From the sequence record NC_047899.1: a stretch of 44,895 nt of DNA. One strand, given 5' to 3'. The translations under genes were made by a program, and so were the position numbers. This document shows, piece after piece, positions 385 through 44,895 of this stretch (its first letter is position 1; the number at the start of each line of letters is the position of its first letter). Origin of the DNA: Escherichia phage VEc3. Below the pieces are notes generated by a model. The model saw only the letters and a list, made by a program, of their open reading frames with translations. It had not been told where the DNA came from and did not search any database.

Positions 385-486
385 CTTAGGTTAACCTTAG
401 TGGACTACCTTAGTTAAAGCCTTAGTGCTTATCTTAGTAATAGCTTAGTAGTGTACCTTAGTAAGTCTTAGTGTCTTCTCTTAGTG
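385..486. repeat. Phased CTTAGT(G/A) short-repeat array, about 9 copies
   Basis: CTTAG cores at 385,396,409,421,433,444,457,467,480, spaced 10-13 bp (about one helical turn); further copies at 201,225,237 (inside DTR) and 629,663,699. Confidence 0.8.
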
Positions 487-6165: not shown

Positions 6166-6188
6166 ATTTACCGGACACTATAGGATAG
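6166..6188 (+). promoter_or_regulatory. Phage RNAP promoter (ATTTACCGGACACTATAGGATAG)
   Basis: Matches the ATTTACyGGACACTATAG core; predicted +1 G at 6183. Confidence 0.6.
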
Positions 6189-8938: not shown

Positions 8939-9099
8939 TGGAAATTATTAAACCAGTATTGAATATCGGTATTGAGATCCTATTCATGCTTGTGATCGCA
9001 GATTATGCTGCACGATATGGCTTCAAGAAAGCAGTGAAACTTATCGTTGCATCTGGTTTTATGATGTCAATGTTCTTTATTGTAACACGCCTTATCTAG
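8938..9099 (+). CDS. Small membrane protein (53 aa)
   Basis: ATG overlaps the primase stop (TAATG); two hydrophobic segments. Confidence 0.4.
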   Translation: MEIIKPVLNIGIEILFMLVIADYAARYGFKKAVKLIVASGFMMSMFFIVTRLI

Positions 9100-9116
9100 T
9101 GTATTTATCAGGGCTT

Positions 9117-9132
9117 GTCTCACATGTGAGAC
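9117..9132. repeat. 16-bp perfect palindrome GTCTCACATGTGAGAC (copy 3)
   Basis: Extended stem GCTTGTCTCACA/TGTGAGACAGGC, followed by TCTTATT. Confidence 0.8.
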
Positions 9133-9171
9133 AGGCTCTTATTAAGTACATTAAATAACTGGAGATTGATT

Positions 9172-10084: not shown

Positions 10085-10250
10085 ACATAGTCTTAGAATG
10101 TTCGATGGTCATGAAGACCTGCAAGCCAAGATTACTAACCAAGCCTTCCTGTTCGCACAGTTAACTATGGCTGAGGCCAAGAAGAATAGTCTCACTCGTG
10201 AACAGGTTATCAAGGAAAGTGAAGTGAAACGTAAGATTCGCAGTCGATAA
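10074..10250 (+). CDS. Small ORF (58 aa), hypothetical
   Basis: ATG 10074 overlapping upstream gene end; no clear RBS. Confidence 0.3.
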   Translation: MQNKHSLRMFDGHEDLQAKITNQAFLFAQLTMAEAKKNSLTREQVIKESEVKRKIRSR

Positions 10251-10260
10251 GTCAAGGGTT

Positions 10261-10276
10261 GTCTCACGTGTGAGAC
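10261..10276. repeat. Palindrome variant GTCTCACGTGTGAGAC (copy 4)
   Basis: One central change; extended stem GGTTGTCTCAC/GTGAGACAGCC then TTTTAT. Confidence 0.7.
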
Positions 10277-10307
10277 AGCCTTTTATCATGTTGATTGGAG
10301 GTGCATT

Positions 10308-28595: not shown

Positions 28596-31543
28596 TGGCA
28601 ATTGAGCGACAAGCAGTACAAGGCCTGCCACAAGTGCAGGCCACTTCTCCTAATGTCATGACCTTTGCACCTCAGCGAGTTGGAGGTGTGGAGGCTGGCG
28701 TAGCTTCTACCTCCGGTAGTCGATTTATCGAAGACCTTATTCGAGCAGCCAGTAGTGTAGCTGATGTAACCACTGGTATCCTTAATCAAAAGATTGAGGA
28801 AGATAAGGTTGTTCAAATGGAACGGGCATATAACGGATTAATGCCTTCTGAGGATGCAACTCGTGGTGGCGCTCGTGCTAACATGCTTGTCAAAGCTCAA
28901 CTGCTAGCTAATGATGAAGCAGCACGAATGAAAGACATGGCTACTCGTTTCCAAGGAACGGATGACGAGTGGACACAACTTATGGTTGACTCTCGTAATG
29001 AGATGCAGAATAAGCTGTTCCAGCAATACCCTGAGTTGCAAGGTGACAAAGATATTATGCGTATGGTCACTAATGTCTTCCAAGAACAGCAGCCTCAGAT
29101 TTGGGCTACACGAACCCAGCATAAACTTGACCGTGAACAAGCAGACCGTGAGGATACCTTTGACGGGCGAGTGGCTTCTACTTGGGATTCTAGTATTGAC
29201 CCTGAAGCCTCTGGCTATGCTTTACAGGAACGAATCCGCGAAGGTCTTACTCAAGGATTACTACCTGAACAGATGCACAAGAAGTTAGTCCAGCGAGCAA
29301 TTTCACTTGCACAAGGCGGTGATGTTAGCATGGCTGAAGCCCTGAAGTATGTGAAGGATGATAAGGGTGTTTCTGTTTATGCTAAGAATCCACAGCTTAT
29401 CACAGCCATCACTAGTGGTAATGCAGTTTGGGCTAGGAATAATGTAGCTGATGTAACTCGTATGTCTTTCGAAGTTAAAGAATCCTACCTTGCAGGTGAT
29501 TTAACTGATGAAGAATTGTTGGAACGAGCACAGCACATTAATAATCTGACAGGTAACTCTGTCTTCTCTAATCCAGAGCTAGAGGCACTGATGCGCCAAC
29601 GGGCTAAGCAGAATGCAGAGCTAGGTGCAATGCAGGATATGCGACGTGAGCTTTACTCCGACCGCCTGACTGGCTTCCAAGGTAAGACTGATAAAGAGAA
29701 GAAGGCTTACATTGATGTTATCAAACAGGATAGCCAACTTTATGCAGACCAGCAAATCAAACAACGTGGCTTGGACCCTTACAGTCAAGAGGCTGAAGCT
29801 ATTCGTGGTGCAGTGGAAGTGCAGCGCCTGCAATTCATGAACTCCAAAGGCTTAGTGGATGATACCTTTGAGTCTCGTATCAAAGCCATGGAATCTATGC
29901 TATCGCCTGAGCACTTTGCCAAGGGCGAACCACAGGAGTTGATGACTATTCGCCAGTTGTGGGAACAGTTGCCAGAAGAGAGCCGAGGTGTCTTTGGTGA
30001 CACGGTGAATGGCTATATGGATAACTACAACACTGCACTACAAATGGGAGAGACACCTCTGCAGGCTGCAAGGTTTGCGCGTGAAGCACAGCAGAAATTC
30101 TCTCGTACTGAGAAGGAAACCAAGAAGTTCAACTCAGCTATTGGAGATGCACTGGATGAGGTATCTGGTGCTGGCTGGTTTGATGGTAAAACCGAAGTGT
30201 CAGACTTAGGTAAAGCTATTGCGGAAGAAGAGTTACGAGCTAAGGCCAATATGTTGTGGTCTAGTGGTATGCGTAACATGGATTCTATCAAGAAGGCTTT
30301 AATTACTTGGGGCAATAAACGCTACACTCAAACAGAGGATGCAAAGACTTCCGGTGGCTATTTCATTAAAGGTGATTACACTTCTGCATCTGATATGCTT
30401 ATGTCAGTTGGGAAAGGCGTAAACCCTACCGATGTACCTCTGGCGCTTGGTAGGTATGTAGAAACACAGATGCCAGAATTGAAGAAGGAGCTTCAAGAGT
30501 GGGAAACTAAAGATGATATATACATTGATTACAATGAACAGAAAGGAACTTTTGTGATTCGTGCTGGTGCAGCAGGTCGCCCTCTTTCTGGAGTAATCCC
30601 TGTAACCTCTTTAGATACTACTTCACTACTAGATTCTGCCTATCAGAAGAAAGTAGAGGAACGAGATAAAGGCGAGTATGTCCACCCGTATCGTACAGAT
30701 ATTGGTGCACAAGAGCCTATGCCAGCTAAACCAACTGCCAAAGATATTGGTAAATTTGGACTAGCTAACTTCCTCATGTCTTCTGCTTTTGCTTCTGGTG
30801 AGAATCTGCCTTCTAACTTCGAGATTAACTATCGAGGTAATATGCAACAATTCTATGACAAGCTAGCTATGGATGAGAATAAAGATAAAGTTGGCTTTAA
30901 TAAGGCAACTGGAACCTTTACTCCATATAAAGACGCTCGCGGTGAGTCTATCGGTTACGGTCATTTCTTAACGGAAGAAGAGAAGCGAAACGGGTATATT
31001 AAGATTGGTGATGAACTAGTTCCCTATCGAGGGTCTATGTCTCAGCTTACAGAGAGCAAGGCTCGCGCTCTTATGGAGCAAGATGCCAAGAAGCATGTGC
31101 CTCCTACTCGTGACTGGAAGATTCCGTTTGACCAGATGCATCCTGCACAGCAACGTGGCTTGATGGATTTAACCTACAATTTAGGTAAAGGTGGAATCCA
31201 GAACTCACCGCGTGCTCTTGCTGCATTCAAAGCTGGTAAGCTTACGGAAGGCTTTATCGAAATGCTGGGCACTGCATCAAGTGAAGGTAAGCGTATCCCT
31301 GGTCTACTGAAGCGACGCGCTGAGGCATACAATATGGCATCTGCTGGTGGTGTGCCTAAGATTACCGAAGTGGAGACTCGTGAAGATGGCTCCATGTGGG
31401 TTAGGTTTGGTGGACCTATGCCAGCAGGTTCTGTCTCGGCATGGACTCATAAACGTATTGGCGCGGATGGTTGGTATCAGGTTTATGAGGCTGCACCTAC
31501 CAAGTTGGCTAAAGGTTCTAAGGTAGGTAAATTTAAGTTGTAG
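28595..31543 (+). CDS. Internal virion protein with C-terminal lysozyme-like domain
   Basis: 982 aa; C-terminal YKDARGESIGYGH and LMDLTYNLG blocks resemble T4-type lysozyme (YKDTEGYYTIGIGH). Confidence 0.7.
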   Translation: MAIERQAVQGLPQVQATSPNVMTFAPQRVGGVEAGVASTSGSRFIEDLIRAASSVADVTTGILNQKIEEDKVVQMERAYNGLMPSEDATRGGARANMLVKAQLLANDEAARMKDMATRFQGTDDEWTQLMVDSRNEMQNKLFQQYPELQGDKDIMRMVTNVFQEQQPQIWATRTQHKLDREQADREDTFDGRVASTWDSSIDPEASGYALQERIREGLTQGLLPEQMHKKLVQRAISLAQGGDVSMAEALKYVKDDKGVSVYAKNPQLITAITSGNAVWARNNVADVTRMSFEVKESYLAGDLTDEELLERAQHINNLTGNSVFSNPELEALMRQRAKQNAELGAMQDMRRELYSDRLTGFQGKTDKEKKAYIDVIKQDSQLYADQQIKQRGLDPYSQEAEAIRGAVEVQRLQFMNSKGLVDDTFESRIKAMESMLSPEHFAKGEPQELMTIRQLWEQLPEESRGVFGDTVNGYMDNYNTALQMGETPLQAARFAREAQQKFSRTEKETKKFNSAIGDALDEVSGAGWFDGKTEVSDLGKAIAEEELRAKANMLWSSGMRNMDSIKKALITWGNKRYTQTEDAKTSGGYFIKGDYTSASDMLMSVGKGVNPTDVPLALGRYVETQMPELKKELQEWETKDDIYIDYNEQKGTFVIRAGAAGRPLSGVIPVTSLDTTSLLDSAYQKKVEERDKGEYVHPYRTDIGAQEPMPAKPTAKDIGKFGLANFLMSSAFASGENLPSNFEINYRGNMQQFYDKLAMDENKDKVGFNKATGTFTPYKDARGESIGYGHFLTEEEKRNGYIKIGDELVPYRGSMSQLTESKARALMEQDAKKHVPPTRDWKIPFDQMHPAQQRGLMDLTYNLGKGGIQNSPRALAAFKAGKLTEGFIEMLGTASSEGKRIPGLLKRRAEAYNMASAGGVPKITEVETREDGSMWVRFGGPMPAGSVSAWTHKRIGADGWYQVYEAAPTKLAKGSKVGKFKL

Positions 31544-31560
31544 TATCTAACTCAAGGCTT

Positions 31561-31576
31561 GTCTCACATGTGAGAC
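31561..31576. repeat. 16-bp perfect palindrome GTCTCACATGTGAGAC (copy 6)
   Basis: Between the two large internal virion protein genes; extended stem then TCTTTAT. Confidence 0.8.
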
Positions 31577-31607
31577 AGGTCTTTATGATAGGCACTATGG
31601 AGGAATT

Positions 31608-35887: not shown

Positions 35888-36082
35888 ATGATTAACTCCG
35901 AACTGGTAGATAGTGGTGTGAAGCTTGCGCCACCTGCACTCGTATCAGGTGGGTACTTCCTCGGTATCAGTTGGGATAATTGGGTGTTAATAGCAACATT
36001 CATTTATACCGTGTTGCAAATTGGGGACTGGTTTTATAATAAGTTCAAGATTTGGAGGGAGAAGCGTGAGCGTACACAATAA
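35888..36082 (+). CDS. Holin (class II-like)
   Basis: 64 aa; two hydrophobic segments and charged C-terminus KIWREKRERTQ; AAGGAGG RBS. Confidence 0.55.
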   Translation: MINSELVDSGVKLAPPALVSGGYFLGISWDNWVLIATFIYTVLQIGDWFYNKFKIWREKRERTQ

Positions 36083-36365
36083 ACATGCAGCTACAGAGGA
36101 CGAGGTTGGCATTCTGCATGGTGCTATTACCAAAATCTTCAATAAGAAAGCACAGGCAATACTGGACACTATAGAAGAAGACCCTGATGCAGCATTACAT
36201 TTAGTGTCTGGTAAGGATATTGGTGCGATGTGTAAGTGGGTTCTTGATAACGGCATTACCGCCACACCTGCTGCACAGCAGGAAGAGTCCAAGTTATCTA
36301 AGCGCCTCAAGGCTATCCGAGAGGCATCCAGTGGTAAGATAATTCAGTTTACAAAAGAGGAGTGA
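36066..36365 (+). CDS. Terminase small subunit (gp18-like), start uncertain
   Basis: GTG 36066 with GGAGGG RBS preferred; track ATG 36021 is the alternative; position between holin and terminase large subunit. Confidence 0.45.
   Translation: MSVHNKHAATEDEVGILHGAITKIFNKKAQAILDTIEEDPDAALHLVSGKDIGAMCKWVLDNGITATPAAQQEESKLSKRLKAIREASSGKIIQFTKEE
36157..36179 (+). promoter_or_regulatory. Phage RNAP promoter embedded in the terminase small subunit CDS
   Basis: GGCAATACTGGACACTATAGAAGAAG; +1 G at 36174; encodes ...AILDTIEED. Confidence 0.55.
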
Positions 36366-36366
36366 T

Positions 36367-36810
36367 ATGCATAGATGGTGTGAATCTCAAGGTTATACCA
36401 TCTTACCTTCTGGTGTCATCCTTTCAAAGGGTGGCACCCCTCTCAAACCATTCAAGGCGGGTAGGGGTTATTTAGCAGTTAAAATTAAAAATAAAGAAGG
36501 TAAATGGCGTAATGTCTATGTTCATCAATTAGTGGCTTATAAGTATTTACCTAAAACTAATAATGAAGTAAACCACAAAGACGGCGATAAGCACAACAAT
36601 GATGTTAGCAACTTGGAGTGGGTAACAAGAAGCGAGAATAACTATTTAAAATGCAATGGAAATGATAGGAGTGCCTTAAATAGCTATTTAGCAAGATTAA
36701 AAGATTGCTTCTTGCAAGGTAAGGGTGTAGCAGAAACCGCTAGACTTACTGGTAAAAGTGAACCAAGAGTTTCTTCTCTCTTTAAGGAGTGGCGAAATGG
36801 CAAAGGCTAG
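36367..36810 (+). CDS. HNH homing endonuclease inserted between the terminase genes
   Basis: 147 aa; VNHKDGDKHNNDVSNLEWVTRSENN motif; strongly AT-rich; paralogous in design to the HNH at 6396. Confidence 0.85.
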   Translation: MHRWCESQGYTILPSGVILSKGGTPLKPFKAGRGYLAVKIKNKEGKWRNVYVHQLVAYKYLPKTNNEVNHKDGDKHNNDVSNLEWVTRSENNYLKCNGNDRSALNSYLARLKDCFLQGKGVAETARLTGKSEPRVSSLFKEWRNGKG

Positions 36811-38695
36811 AGAATCACAGGCAGAGGCATTAAAGCGGTGGGAAAACCTTAAAGAACTACAAGACACTTTTAAATATACAGCGGAAGGTTTGCTTCTCTT
36901 TGCAGATACAGTTATTCATAACTTAATTGCAGGCAACCCTCATCTGATTCGTATGCAGGCGGATATCTTGAAGTTCCTATTTTACGGACACAAGTACCGC
37001 CTCATCGAAGCGCCTCGTGGTATCGCTAAGACAACACTATCAGCAATCTATACGGTATTCCGTATTATTCATGAACCGCATAAGCGTATCATGGTTGTGT
37101 CCCAAAACGCCAAGCGAGCAGAGGAAATCGCAGGTTGGGTAGTTAAAATCTTCCGTGGCTTAGACTTTCTTGAGTTTATGCTGCCGGATATCTACGCTGG
37201 GGACCGTGCATCCGTTAAGGCGTTTGAGATTCATTACACCCTACGTGGTAGTGATAAGTCTCCTTCTGTATCCTGTTACTCAATCGAAGCAGGTATGCAG
37301 GGTGCTCGTGCTGATATTATTCTAGCGGATGACGTAGAGTCGATGCAGAATGCTCGTACGGCAGCGGGCCGTGCCTTGCTTGAGGAACTGACTAAGGAGT
37401 TTGAATCTATCAACCAGTTTGGGGATATCATTTACCTTGGTACACCTCAGAACGTAAACTCTATCTACAACAACCTACCTGCTCGTGGTTACTCTGTTCG
37501 TATCTGGACTGCGCGTTACCCTTCAGTAGAGCAAGAGCAATGTTATGGCGACTTCCTTGCACCTATGATTGTTCAAGATATGAAGGACAACCCAGCACTT
37601 CGCTCAGGGTACGGGTTGGATGGTAATAGTGGTGCACCTTGTGCCCCTGAAATGTATGATGATGAAGTCCTGATTGAGAAGGAAATCTCTCAGGGTGCTG
37701 CTAAGTTCCAGCTTCAGTTCATGCTTAACACTCGCATGATGGATGCTGACAGATACCCATTACGCCTGAACAATCTAATCTTCACCTCGTTTGGTACAGA
37801 GGAAGTCCCTGTGATGCCTACGTGGAGTAATGATTCCATAAACATCATTGGTGATGCACCTAAGTACGGTAACAAGCCTACGGATTTCATGTACAGACCT
37901 GTAGCTCGCCCATACGAATGGGGTGCTGTCTCCCGCAAGATTATGTATATTGACCCTGCGGGTGGTGGTAAGAACGGAGATGAGACGGGTGTAGCCATCG
38001 TATTCCTGCACGGCACATTCATTTATGTGTATCAGTGCTTTGGTGTACCTGGCGGATACCGAGAGTCGTCCCTGAATCGCATTGTGCAGGCCGCAAAGCA
38101 GGCGGGTGTTAAAGAGGTATTCATTGAGAAGAACTTTGGTCATGGCGCGTTTGAGGCGGTAATTAAGCCGTACTTTGAACGAGAGTGGCCTGTAACTCTG
38201 GAAGAAGATTACGCCACCGGACAGAAAGAATTGCGTATCATTGAGACGCTGGAGCCGCTCATGGCAGCCCATAGGCTTATCTTCAATGCAGAGATGGTGA
38301 AGTCAGACTTTGAGTCGGTACAGCACTATCCGCTTGAACTACGCATGTCCTACAGTCTTTTCAATCAAATGTCGAACATAACGATTGAGAAGAACAGCCT
38401 ACGGCACGATGACCGCCTAGACGCCCTGTATGGTGCTATACGGCAATTAACTTCTCAGATAGACTATGACGAGGTTACACGGATTAATCGCCTCAGAGCG
38501 CAGGAGATGCGAGATTACATCCATGCTATGAACACACCTCATCTACGCAGGGCAATGCTATATGGGGATTACGGTACTGAGCGAAGAGTGACCAACACTT
38601 CCGTAGCGATGCAGCAGCGAGTTTACGGGCAGAGCTACCGAAATAAATCGGCAAGCAGAAATACACTTTCTGCAAGGATTTCAAGGACTTATTAA
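36797..38695 (+). CDS. Terminase large subunit (gp19-like)
   Basis: Walker A-like GIAKTT, YLGTPQ, FMLN, HDDRLDAL blocks as in T7 gp19; ATG 36797 with AAGGAG RBS preferred over track start 36758. Confidence 0.92.
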   Translation: MAKARESQAEALKRWENLKELQDTFKYTAEGLLLFADTVIHNLIAGNPHLIRMQADILKFLFYGHKYRLIEAPRGIAKTTLSAIYTVFRIIHEPHKRIMVVSQNAKRAEEIAGWVVKIFRGLDFLEFMLPDIYAGDRASVKAFEIHYTLRGSDKSPSVSCYSIEAGMQGARADIILADDVESMQNARTAAGRALLEELTKEFESINQFGDIIYLGTPQNVNSIYNNLPARGYSVRIWTARYPSVEQEQCYGDFLAPMIVQDMKDNPALRSGYGLDGNSGAPCAPEMYDDEVLIEKEISQGAAKFQLQFMLNTRMMDADRYPLRLNNLIFTSFGTEEVPVMPTWSNDSINIIGDAPKYGNKPTDFMYRPVARPYEWGAVSRKIMYIDPAGGGKNGDETGVAIVFLHGTFIYVYQCFGVPGGYRESSLNRIVQAAKQAGVKEVFIEKNFGHGAFEAVIKPYFEREWPVTLEEDYATGQKELRIIETLEPLMAAHRLIFNAEMVKSDFESVQHYPLELRMSYSLFNQMSNITIEKNSLRHDDRLDALYGAIRQLTSQIDYDEVTRINRLRAQEMRDYIHAMNTPHLRRAMLYGDYGTERRVTNTSVAMQQRVYGQSYRNKSASRNTLSARISRTY

Positions 38696-38716
38696 TTACT
38701 GGACACTATAGAAGGA
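38694..38716 (+). promoter_or_regulatory. Phage RNAP promoter (AATTACTGGACACTATAGAAGGA)
   Basis: Consensus core; +1 G at 38711; leader contains hairpin GGGTGTAC-TCCT-GTACACCC. Confidence 0.7.
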
Positions 38717-44308: not shown

Positions 44309-44376
44309 GCAGGTTAATATCTTAGTGTACACAAGGGCAGACTTAGGTTTGCTCTTAGTGTACCAAAGGAGGTCAC

Positions 44377-44532
44377 ATGATTTGGATTCATACGTATGGT
44401 GTAGGGCCGTTCCAGAAGAATGTACTCAGGAAGATTCATGAGTCCGAGGAATCAGCCTTAGCCAGCCAGAAGGTTCTCGGTGGAACCGTTCAGTGTTACA
44501 TGAAGAAACCACAAGGTTTCGACTTAGTGTAA
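44377..44532 (+). CDS. Small ORF (51 aa), hypothetical
   Basis: AAGGAGG RBS upstream of ATG 44377; last ORF before the right DTR. Confidence 0.35.
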   Translation: MIWIHTYGVGPFQKNVLRKIHESEESALASQKVLGGTVQCYMKKPQGFDLV

Positions 44533-44591: not shown

Positions 44592-44895
44592 CTCGCCCTC
44601 GCCCTCGCCGGGTTGTCCCCATAGGGTGGCCTGAGGGAATCCGTCGAAGACGGGCAGGGCTGATGTACTCCTTGTACTAGCTTAGTAGTACACAAGGGCA
44701 GGCCGTACTAGTTAGCTGGTACAGCCTAGTCTTTGCTCATGTACTAGCAAGGTGGAACGCTGGAGAGCGCCTAGGACGGCCTAGGGCACGCCTTAGTGTT
44801 GGACAAGGTGAATGCCTTAGTGAAGCCTCTTAGTGCATTCCTGAGGCCATTCAGGGCGTTTATGAGGTATTGACAGGGTGGGCGTGGGTGGGCTA
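44592..44895. repeat. Right direct terminal repeat (DTR), 304 bp
   Basis: Exact copy of 1-304 at the window end; typical of T7-like linear genomes. Confidence 0.95.

Follow-up and report, generated by a model that had tools for sequence, protein, structure and literature searches.

The left end of the genome of Escherichia phage VEc3 carries a regular array of nine CTTAGT-type repeats, all in one orientation, which is very probably the SP6/K1-5-group counterpart of the short-repeat array (SRL) beside the left terminal repeat of T7. An array has this placement in phages across the family, its motif is specific to the phage lineage, and both its motif and its spacing are under selection. The explanation that we judge best as a whole, that this SRL-type array serves as a platform for junction processing or packaging, has in our estimation an even chance of being right.

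The window that we analyzed is the whole of sequence record NC_047899.1 (44,895 bp), a complete linear Vectrevirus (K1-5/K1E-like) genome. The closest relatives of VEc3 belong to Vectrevirus (Molineuxvirinae, Autographiviridae), and exact direct terminal repeats (DTRs) are present. The first kilobase is up to 97% identical to that of K1-5/K1E-like phages, with SP6-like Salmonella phages as more distant matches. The DTR is 304 bp long, and its two copies (1-304 and 44592-44895) are identical; the DTR right boundary at 304/305 corresponds to the mature right end, the right genome end being position 44895. The elements of the two ends are as follows.

1-304, no strand assigned: left DTR, with same-strand CTTAGT copies at 90, 201, 225 and 238 (spacings 24 and 13 bp)
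304-310, + strand: ATCTGTT, spanning the DTR right boundary (identified from sequence and literature)
349-354, + strand: outlying CTTAGG between the DTR and the core array, its position kept in relatives as ACCTTAGG/T
385-485, + strand: core array, CTTAGG at 385 and eight CTTAGT copies at 396, 409, 421, 433, 444, 457, 467 and 480; extended consensus yCTTAGTr; non-coding
629-714, + strand: scattered copies, CTTAGT at 629, 662 and 699 and TTTAGT at 709, running up to the -35 element of the first sigma-70-like promoter
716-744, + strand: TTGACA-17-TACATT, the first strong early promoter of the sigma-70-like type, where the repeat-rich leader has its downstream limit
811-816, + strand: last CTTAGT of the leader (CTTAGTGTAACC), just before the first gene and kept in K1-5, K1E and SP6
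44321-44528, + strand: right-end counterpart upstream of the right DTR, CTTAGT at 44321, 44354 and 44523 and CTTAGG at 44342
44592-44895, no strand assigned: right DTR, identical to 1-304, with four CTTAGT copies

In a concatemer, the right-end copies at 44321-44528 lie immediately to the left of the junction repeat. The order through the junction region is right-end copies, the DTR with its own copies, ATCTGTT at the DTR boundary, the dense array, the scattered copies and the early promoters.

The first-pass annotation had described about nine copies at 385-486 that were 10-13 bp apart, with more copies inside the DTR and towards the first promoter. Its positions proved exact: the array consists of one CTTAGG and eight CTTAGT, all on the + strand, and the additional copies were found at 201, 225 and 238 (and also at 90) and at 629, 662 and 699. 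The core array begins 81 bp beyond the DTR right boundary, and its successive spacings are 11, 13, 12, 12, 11, 13, 10 and 13 bp. Outside the CTTAGT hexamer, an alignment of relatives revealed weak base preferences only, giving the consensus yCTTAGTr. The scattered copies keep their spacing of 148/149-33-37 in K1E and SP6, and the -35 element of the first promoter is directly preceded by CTTAGT at 699 and TTTAGT at 709. At the right end, one of the copies in the set at 44321, 44342, 44354 and 44523 is positionally conserved in relatives.

The CTTAGT copies are clustered far beyond chance. We found 8 exact copies within 102 bp, whereas the maximum in 500 dinucleotide-matched simulated genomes had a mean of 1.6 and a largest value of 4, and no other 6-mer showed comparable clustering anywhere in the 44,895-bp genome. 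On the + strand, CTTAGT reaches 21.6 copies per kb in 305-860; its density is 13 per kb in the DTR and 6.9 per kb over the 432 bp that precede the right DTR, compared with 0.28 per kb in the interior. The copies are also polar, with 16 on the + strand and 1 on the - strand in 1-860, and 22 and 2, respectively, across the ~1.2-kb junction region. In the interior (861-44159) the - strand has more copies than the + strand (21 and 12), where ~15 per strand are expected from shuffles, and this lack of interior enrichment rules out a genome-wide polar motif of the Chi or KOPS type.

Other classes of element were tried for the same DNA. No open reading frame of at least 20 amino acids lies inside the array, and only a 35-amino-acid GTG frame (287-394) clips its first copy; as no credible frame covers 385-485, a coding sequence was ruled out. 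The array folds more weakly as RNA than 198 of 200 shuffled controls, and more weakly as single-stranded DNA than 196 of 200, which rules out a structured RNA or single-stranded DNA element. A known RNA family was dropped as positions 1-1600 gave no Rfam match at E<=1. The array DNA, being non-coding and having neither an Rfam match nor a stable fold, is left free as a binding site.

The array is regular but not helically phased. In the first-pass annotation its copies had been placed one helical turn apart, a phasing taken as a mark of cooperative protein binding on one face of the DNA. A regression of copy position on copy number gave a period of 11.87 bp per copy, and by vector strength the best period was 11.85 bp (R = 0.95), compared with R = 0.16 at 10.5 bp. 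Placed on a 10.5-bp helix, the nine copies fall at 0, 17, 103, 154, 206, 223, 309, 291 and 17 degrees, a span of ~377 degrees, so that they spiral once round the helix without a common face. Predicted curvature is low as well: the Bolshoy-Trifonov wedge model, a model rather than an experiment, gives the array an end-to-end/contour ratio of 0.994 and ranks 92% of genome windows as more curved. A helically phased array for one-face binding or bending is ruled out by the 11.87-bp period and the low predicted curvature.

To compare the array among relatives, we used 19 IMG/VR contigs retrieved through the invariant neighboring hairpin as an anchor and added K1-5, K1E and SP6 from GenBank. The spacing pattern of VEc3 is identical in K1-5, K1E and ~12 metagenomic contigs, whereas the SP6-type array has CTTAGT at spacings of 12, 12, 12, 12, 22 and 11 bp. 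K1-5 and K1E therefore have the motif, spacing pattern and flanking elements of VEc3, and SP6 has the motif and flanking elements with a variant spacing; all three differ from VEc3 in spacer substitutions and in DTR length. The proposal of a functional array, for which the first-pass annotation had called for a comparison with these three left ends, thus withstood that comparison.

Over 21 distinct sequences, pairwise identity is 0.90 across the 54 motif columns and 0.56 across the 47 spacer columns (Mann-Whitney p=1.6e-12, the columns not being independent of one another). With six near-invariant motif positions between drifting spacers, the selection is on sequence and not on composition. 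Judged from these alignments, there is selection on both motif and spacing, and the array looks like a selected, sequence-specific recognition element. Of the earlier suggestion of cooperative binding on one face, the recognition element is therefore what stands, and the single face falls with the winding of the copies round the helix.

At least 80 phage-collection records carry the array, among them Escherichia, Salmonella, Klebsiella, Citrobacter and Raoultella phages, and it is annotated as a feature in none of the array-carrying records inspected (at least 80). Several records, including PV775411, PV717788 and MZ234019, have CDSs for a "hypothetical protein" annotated over the non-coding leader, the array included, and many relatives' records are not opened at the true genome end; these leader CDSs and misplaced starts are likely annotation artifacts. 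The array and the ATCTGTT boundary can serve as landmarks for true genome ends in assemblies of SP6/K1-5-like therapeutic phages. A scan of IMG/VR with CTTAGT-N4-7-CTTAGT-N4-7-CTTAGT returned, among the matches listed, mostly unrelated tandem repeats, giant-virus bins included. This generic three-copy pattern matches >100 unrelated viral contigs (IMG/VR loci L007, L012, L016, L034 and others), which look like common tandem repeats with no relation to SP6-like phages.

The wider family offers the closest parallels. T7 has 11 copies of [C/A][C/T/A]TAAAG at 175-332 with 13-bp spacing (11 on one strand and 0 on the other), starting 15 bp after its 160-bp repeat, with further copies inside the repeat (17, 41 and 60) and before the right repeat. 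One-strand motif series also directly follow the annotated DTR in T3 (CYTAAAG), K1F (CCTACAG/CCATAAG), gh-1 (CCATAGG) and Era103 (CCTTATG). The best period is 11.85 bp in VEc3, 11.6 bp in SP6 and 13.15 bp in T7; across the family it ranges over 11.6-14.8 bp and is never 10.5 bp. We take the arrays flanking the T7 terminal repeat to be those called SRL and SRR, names that were reportedly given with their description by Dunn and Studier in 1983. They have been visible since the T7 genome was sequenced, and we know of no demonstrated function for them.

In both VEc3 and T7 the array follows the left DTR and occupies non-coding DNA ahead of the early host promoters; both phages have extra copies within the DTR and before the right DTR, and ATCTGTT at the DTR boundary. 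VEc3 has with T7 and T3 in common 9-11 one-strand copies at a regular spacing of 12-13 bp. They differ in motif (CTTAGT in VEc3, CCTAAAG/CTTAAAG heptamers in T7 and T3), and VEc3 and T7 differ in period (11.9 and 13.1 bp) and offset from the DTR (81 and 15 bp). The right-end array of VEc3 is sparser than that of T7, and beside its arrays VEc3 has no phage promoter, whereas T7 has phiOL and phiOR. In possessing a DTR and in placement, single orientation, spacing, DTR and right-end copies and boundary ATCTGTT, the VEc3 array is of the SRL type; it does not have the T7 sequence CCTAAAG, and the motifs of T7, T3, K1F, gh-1 and Era103 also differ from one another. The CTTAGT array is a motif variant of a long-known kind of element, common to the published SP6, K1-5 and K1E genomes. 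A full-text literature search, which covered neither the original SP6 and K1-5 genome papers nor older papers in subscription journals, found no description of CTTAGT repeats in SP6-like phages and no function assigned to SRL or SRR of T7.

In these genomes the motif follows the phage lineage and not the host. The E. coli phages T7, K1F and K1-5 have CCTAAAG, CCTACAG/CCATAAG and CTTAGT, respectively, while SP6, a Salmonella phage, shares CTTAGT with K1-5. This distribution disfavors a site for a host factor and makes a phage-encoded partner more likely. Among the roles that the first-pass annotation had listed, packaging is accordingly the one favored here, and host factor recruitment has lost ground.

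The boundary sequence is likewise widespread: ATCTGT(T/A) stands at the DTR right boundary of VEc3, K1-5, K1E, SP6, T7, T3, K1F and gh-1, with ATCTAT in Era103. The exact ATCTGTT is found there in VEc3, T7 (161-167), T3, SP6, K1-5 and K1E, and the heptamer of K1F and gh-1 is ATCTGTA or ATCTGTC. In the class II pause/termination signals of T7 RNA polymerase, ATCTGTT forms the core that is strictly conserved, and the polymerase-lysozyme complex is reported to pause at the junction, interact with gp18/gp19 and start maturation and packaging (Zhang and Studier 2004).

For VEc3, then, the array is an expected feature, and its value lies in the comparative constraints that it places on an old question about the T7 group. 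The comparison adds that such arrays are family-wide and under selection, that their motif is lineage-specific, that they are strictly polar and that their period of ~12-15 bp is not the helical repeat. These properties narrow the candidates to a phage-encoded protein that binds head to tail.

Such a protein would find in the nine contiguous, same-orientation sites of ~12 bp a head-to-tail platform, on which it would form a polar array winding round the DNA rather than lying on a single face. It would act at the maturation of replicated genomes. In T7, terminase is recruited once the phage RNA polymerase has paused at the junction signal; duplication of the repeat follows, and then the ends are cut. 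The prime candidate binder would be the small terminase subunit, whose gene is the following.

36021-36365, + strand: terminase small subunit gene (PHROG 891, E=3e-25), putative binder

We infer that a protein binds, which one it may be and at which step it acts, and our tentative proposal, with slightly less than an even chance, is that the array offers a phage-encoded protein a platform for head-to-tail binding, used in the processing of concatemer junctions or in packaging. The repeated sites of VEc3 adjoin the terminase cut sites, the array being 81 bp from the DTR boundary at 304/305. The small terminase gene is followed by an HNH endonuclease frame at 36367-36810 (PHROG 59, E=1e-29), which runs into the start of the large terminase gene (36758-38695).

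The comparison of T3 with T7 bears on the candidate. Their small terminases (gp18) are 93% identical and interchangeable, gp18 is described as a DNA-binding accessory protein of the packaging initiation complex, and the CYTAAAG motif is common to both phages. This is an indirect fit to gp18 as the reader of a motif shared by T3 and T7. Packaging specificity between the two has been traced to gp19 and to the terminal 5% of their DNA; as T3 and T7 share the motif yet discriminate each other's DNA, the motif is not the determinant of packaging specificity.

Several points weigh against the packaging reading. The essential packaging sequences of T7, according to what Chung and Hinkle are said to have found in 1990 with plasmid packaging, are mainly on the right-end side of the junction, which would make the left array at most accessory. 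The copies extend as far as the early promoters, seemingly well past the stretch that an accessory element of a cut site would require, and one-strand polarity without secondary structure would suit a role in single-stranded DNA or RNA equally well.

In a more specific form of the proposal, which we think improbable, the small terminase or another junction-binding phage protein would coat the array to make a polar nucleoprotein barrier downstream of the ATCTGTT pause site, holding a paused polymerase or an incoming fork until the terminal repeat had been duplicated before cutting. If true, this would give a handle on how T7-like phages regenerate the second terminal repeat, and the lineage-specific motifs would record protein-DNA co-evolution across Autographiviridae.

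Short repeated sites of this kind beside a genome end are known from other packaging systems. In lambda cosB, the R sites are bound by gpNu1; as with R1-R3, VEc3 has several short repeats next to a terminase cut site and a small terminase gene. Lambda differs in having three sites with an IHF bend, whereas VEc3 has nine contiguous head-to-tail sites and small-terminase binding there is putative; to our knowledge, sequence-specific DNA binding has not been established for a small terminase of the T7 group. The adenovirus "A" repeats, recognized by viral packaging proteins, resemble the VEc3 repeats as a series of short motifs within a few hundred bp of one end of a linear genome, on the inner side of the terminal repeat. 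Adenovirus, however, infects eukaryotes and is unrelated, its motif is bipartite and its proteins are different, so that the likeness is an analogy only.

A second parallel is with centromere- or iteron-type direct repeats, such as parC bound by ParR and tubC (12-bp repeats) bound by TubR, which a small protein coats as a helical filament. These systems and VEc3 have in common contiguous direct repeats whose period differs from the helical repeat, so that bound subunits would wind round the DNA. The VEc3 array lies at the end of a virulent phage genome without an associated partition or replication-initiator gene and could be said to work like ParR or TubR sites only.

Among the alternatives to a junction platform, the one that survives best places the function at the leading end, where the repeats would bind a host protein or a protein ejected from the virion on the first ~800 bp to enter the cell. 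Binding there could protect the end, arrest a transcription-independent step of entry or deliver the early promoters to host RNA polymerase. On the + strand, the left-end copies occur only in the untranslated leader (90-816), where the final ones abut the -35 element of the first promoter, and the positions of promoter-proximal copies are conserved between SP6, K1E and VEc3. The leader also roughly matches in length the ~850 bp of T7 DNA that enter the cell before transcription takes over. Such confinement, however, is offset by the leader being the only sizeable non-coding stretch able to house such motifs, and the array is neither phased on one face nor predicted to be curved. A host factor is further opposed by motifs that differ within one host (T7 and K1F compared with K1-5) and are the same across hosts. 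The first-pass annotation had suggested a role at the end that enters first; that role is weakened by the copies at 44321, 44342, 44354 and 44523, which have the same orientation and lie upstream of the right DTR, the last part to enter. We consider a leading-end function unlikely.

Slightly less likely still is action of the motif in a single-stranded nucleic acid, either a read-through RNA of the junction or the strand displaced during terminal-repeat duplication or replication, where it could be a loading or priming site or an unstructured landing pad. The strict polarity in the ~1.2-kb junction region (22 copies to 2) and an array kept unstructured, below 198 of 200 RNA shuffles and 196 of 200 single-stranded DNA shuffles, are consistent with such a role, and the array lies 75-180 nt downstream of the polymerase pause signal. 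An asymmetric protein bound head to tail on duplex DNA explains the polarity equally well, however, and direct repeats without inverted copies are unstructured by construction. Phage promoters occur first at 6176 and last at 38704, and RNA could thus arise here only by long read-through.

The phage promoters also dispose of a promoter-related origin. Their consensus in VEc3 is ATTTACTGGACACTATAGAAG, with none within 6 kb of either genome end, and promoter-derived sites or polymerase decoys are ruled out by the lack of relation between ATTTACTGGACACTATAGAAG and CTTAGT and by the locations of the first and last promoters. SP6 shares CTTAGT, though its promoter specificity differs from the ATTTACTGGACACTATAGAAG of VEc3.

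It is in our view quite improbable that the array acts through DNA structure alone, as a bent, flexible or easily melted segment that has no sequence-specific partner. G+C content is 35-37% over the array, down from 52-61% in the DTR, and each array unit contains a flexible TA step. The wedge-model ratio speaks against bending, an 11.9-bp period would cancel any planar bend, and the six positions of the motif are near-invariant while the neighboring spacers drift. Least probable by far is that tandem duplication, for example of a 24-bp unit, left the array behind as a neutral relic that has no function: higher-order periods of 23, 24 and 48 bp (Tandem Repeats Finder) and successive array spacings that sum to 24, 24, 24 and 23 bp point to a 24-bp super-period that suggests how the array arose, but the spacers are much less conserved than the motif, genera and hosts agree in copy number and spacing, and analogous arrays occupy the same place in distant subfamilies.

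Several further elements of the VEc3 terminal repeat were observed. The left terminus consists of CTCGCC three times (1-18), and ~25 bp from the terminus lies a palindrome, CCCCATAGGG (26-35), that is kept near the left end in T7, SP6, K1-5, K1F, gh-1 (as CCCCGTAGGGG) and Era103; it may be a site at which the left end is cut or recognized. A canonical G-quadruplex motif with four G-runs, GGGTGGGCGTGGGTGGG (285-301, + strand), directly precedes the DTR boundary and its pause signal; at the corresponding place the G-runs of K1-5 and SP6 number only two or three. A second ATCTGTT occurs at 614-620 in VEc3, and SP6 and K1-5 have ATCTATT there.

Directly after the last array repeat, VEc3 has a palindrome, ACATGC-AA-GCATGT (489-502), in place of which many relatives have ATAGCT-AAA-GCTAT. 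The palindrome is thus kept through compensatory changes and could be a hairpin or a dimer-binding site. The non-coding block that follows, between the array and the promoters (516-620), is highly conserved from SP6 to the K1-5-like phages. Its elements are a hairpin that is invariant, GCGGTC-ggta-GACCGC (522-537), two copies of the direct repeat TAAGATGC..TAGG and CCTAGC three times at a 9-bp period (583-609).

Around the first genes, an inverted repeat (811-840 with ~1350-1385) brackets the first small genes, and a second TTGACA-17-TACATT promoter lies at 1348-1376. The sequence CTCTTTAACAA occurs twice in VEc3 (797 and 1411), and T7 has it at 813-823, in the interval from promoter A3 to gene 0.3 where the RNase III site R0.3 lies. 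Farther into the genome, a three-copy family of 46-nt repeats (9097-9142, 10241-10286 and 31541-31586), 76-80% identical and centered on the palindrome TGTCTCACATGTGAGACA, probably represents terminator-like or regulatory hairpins.
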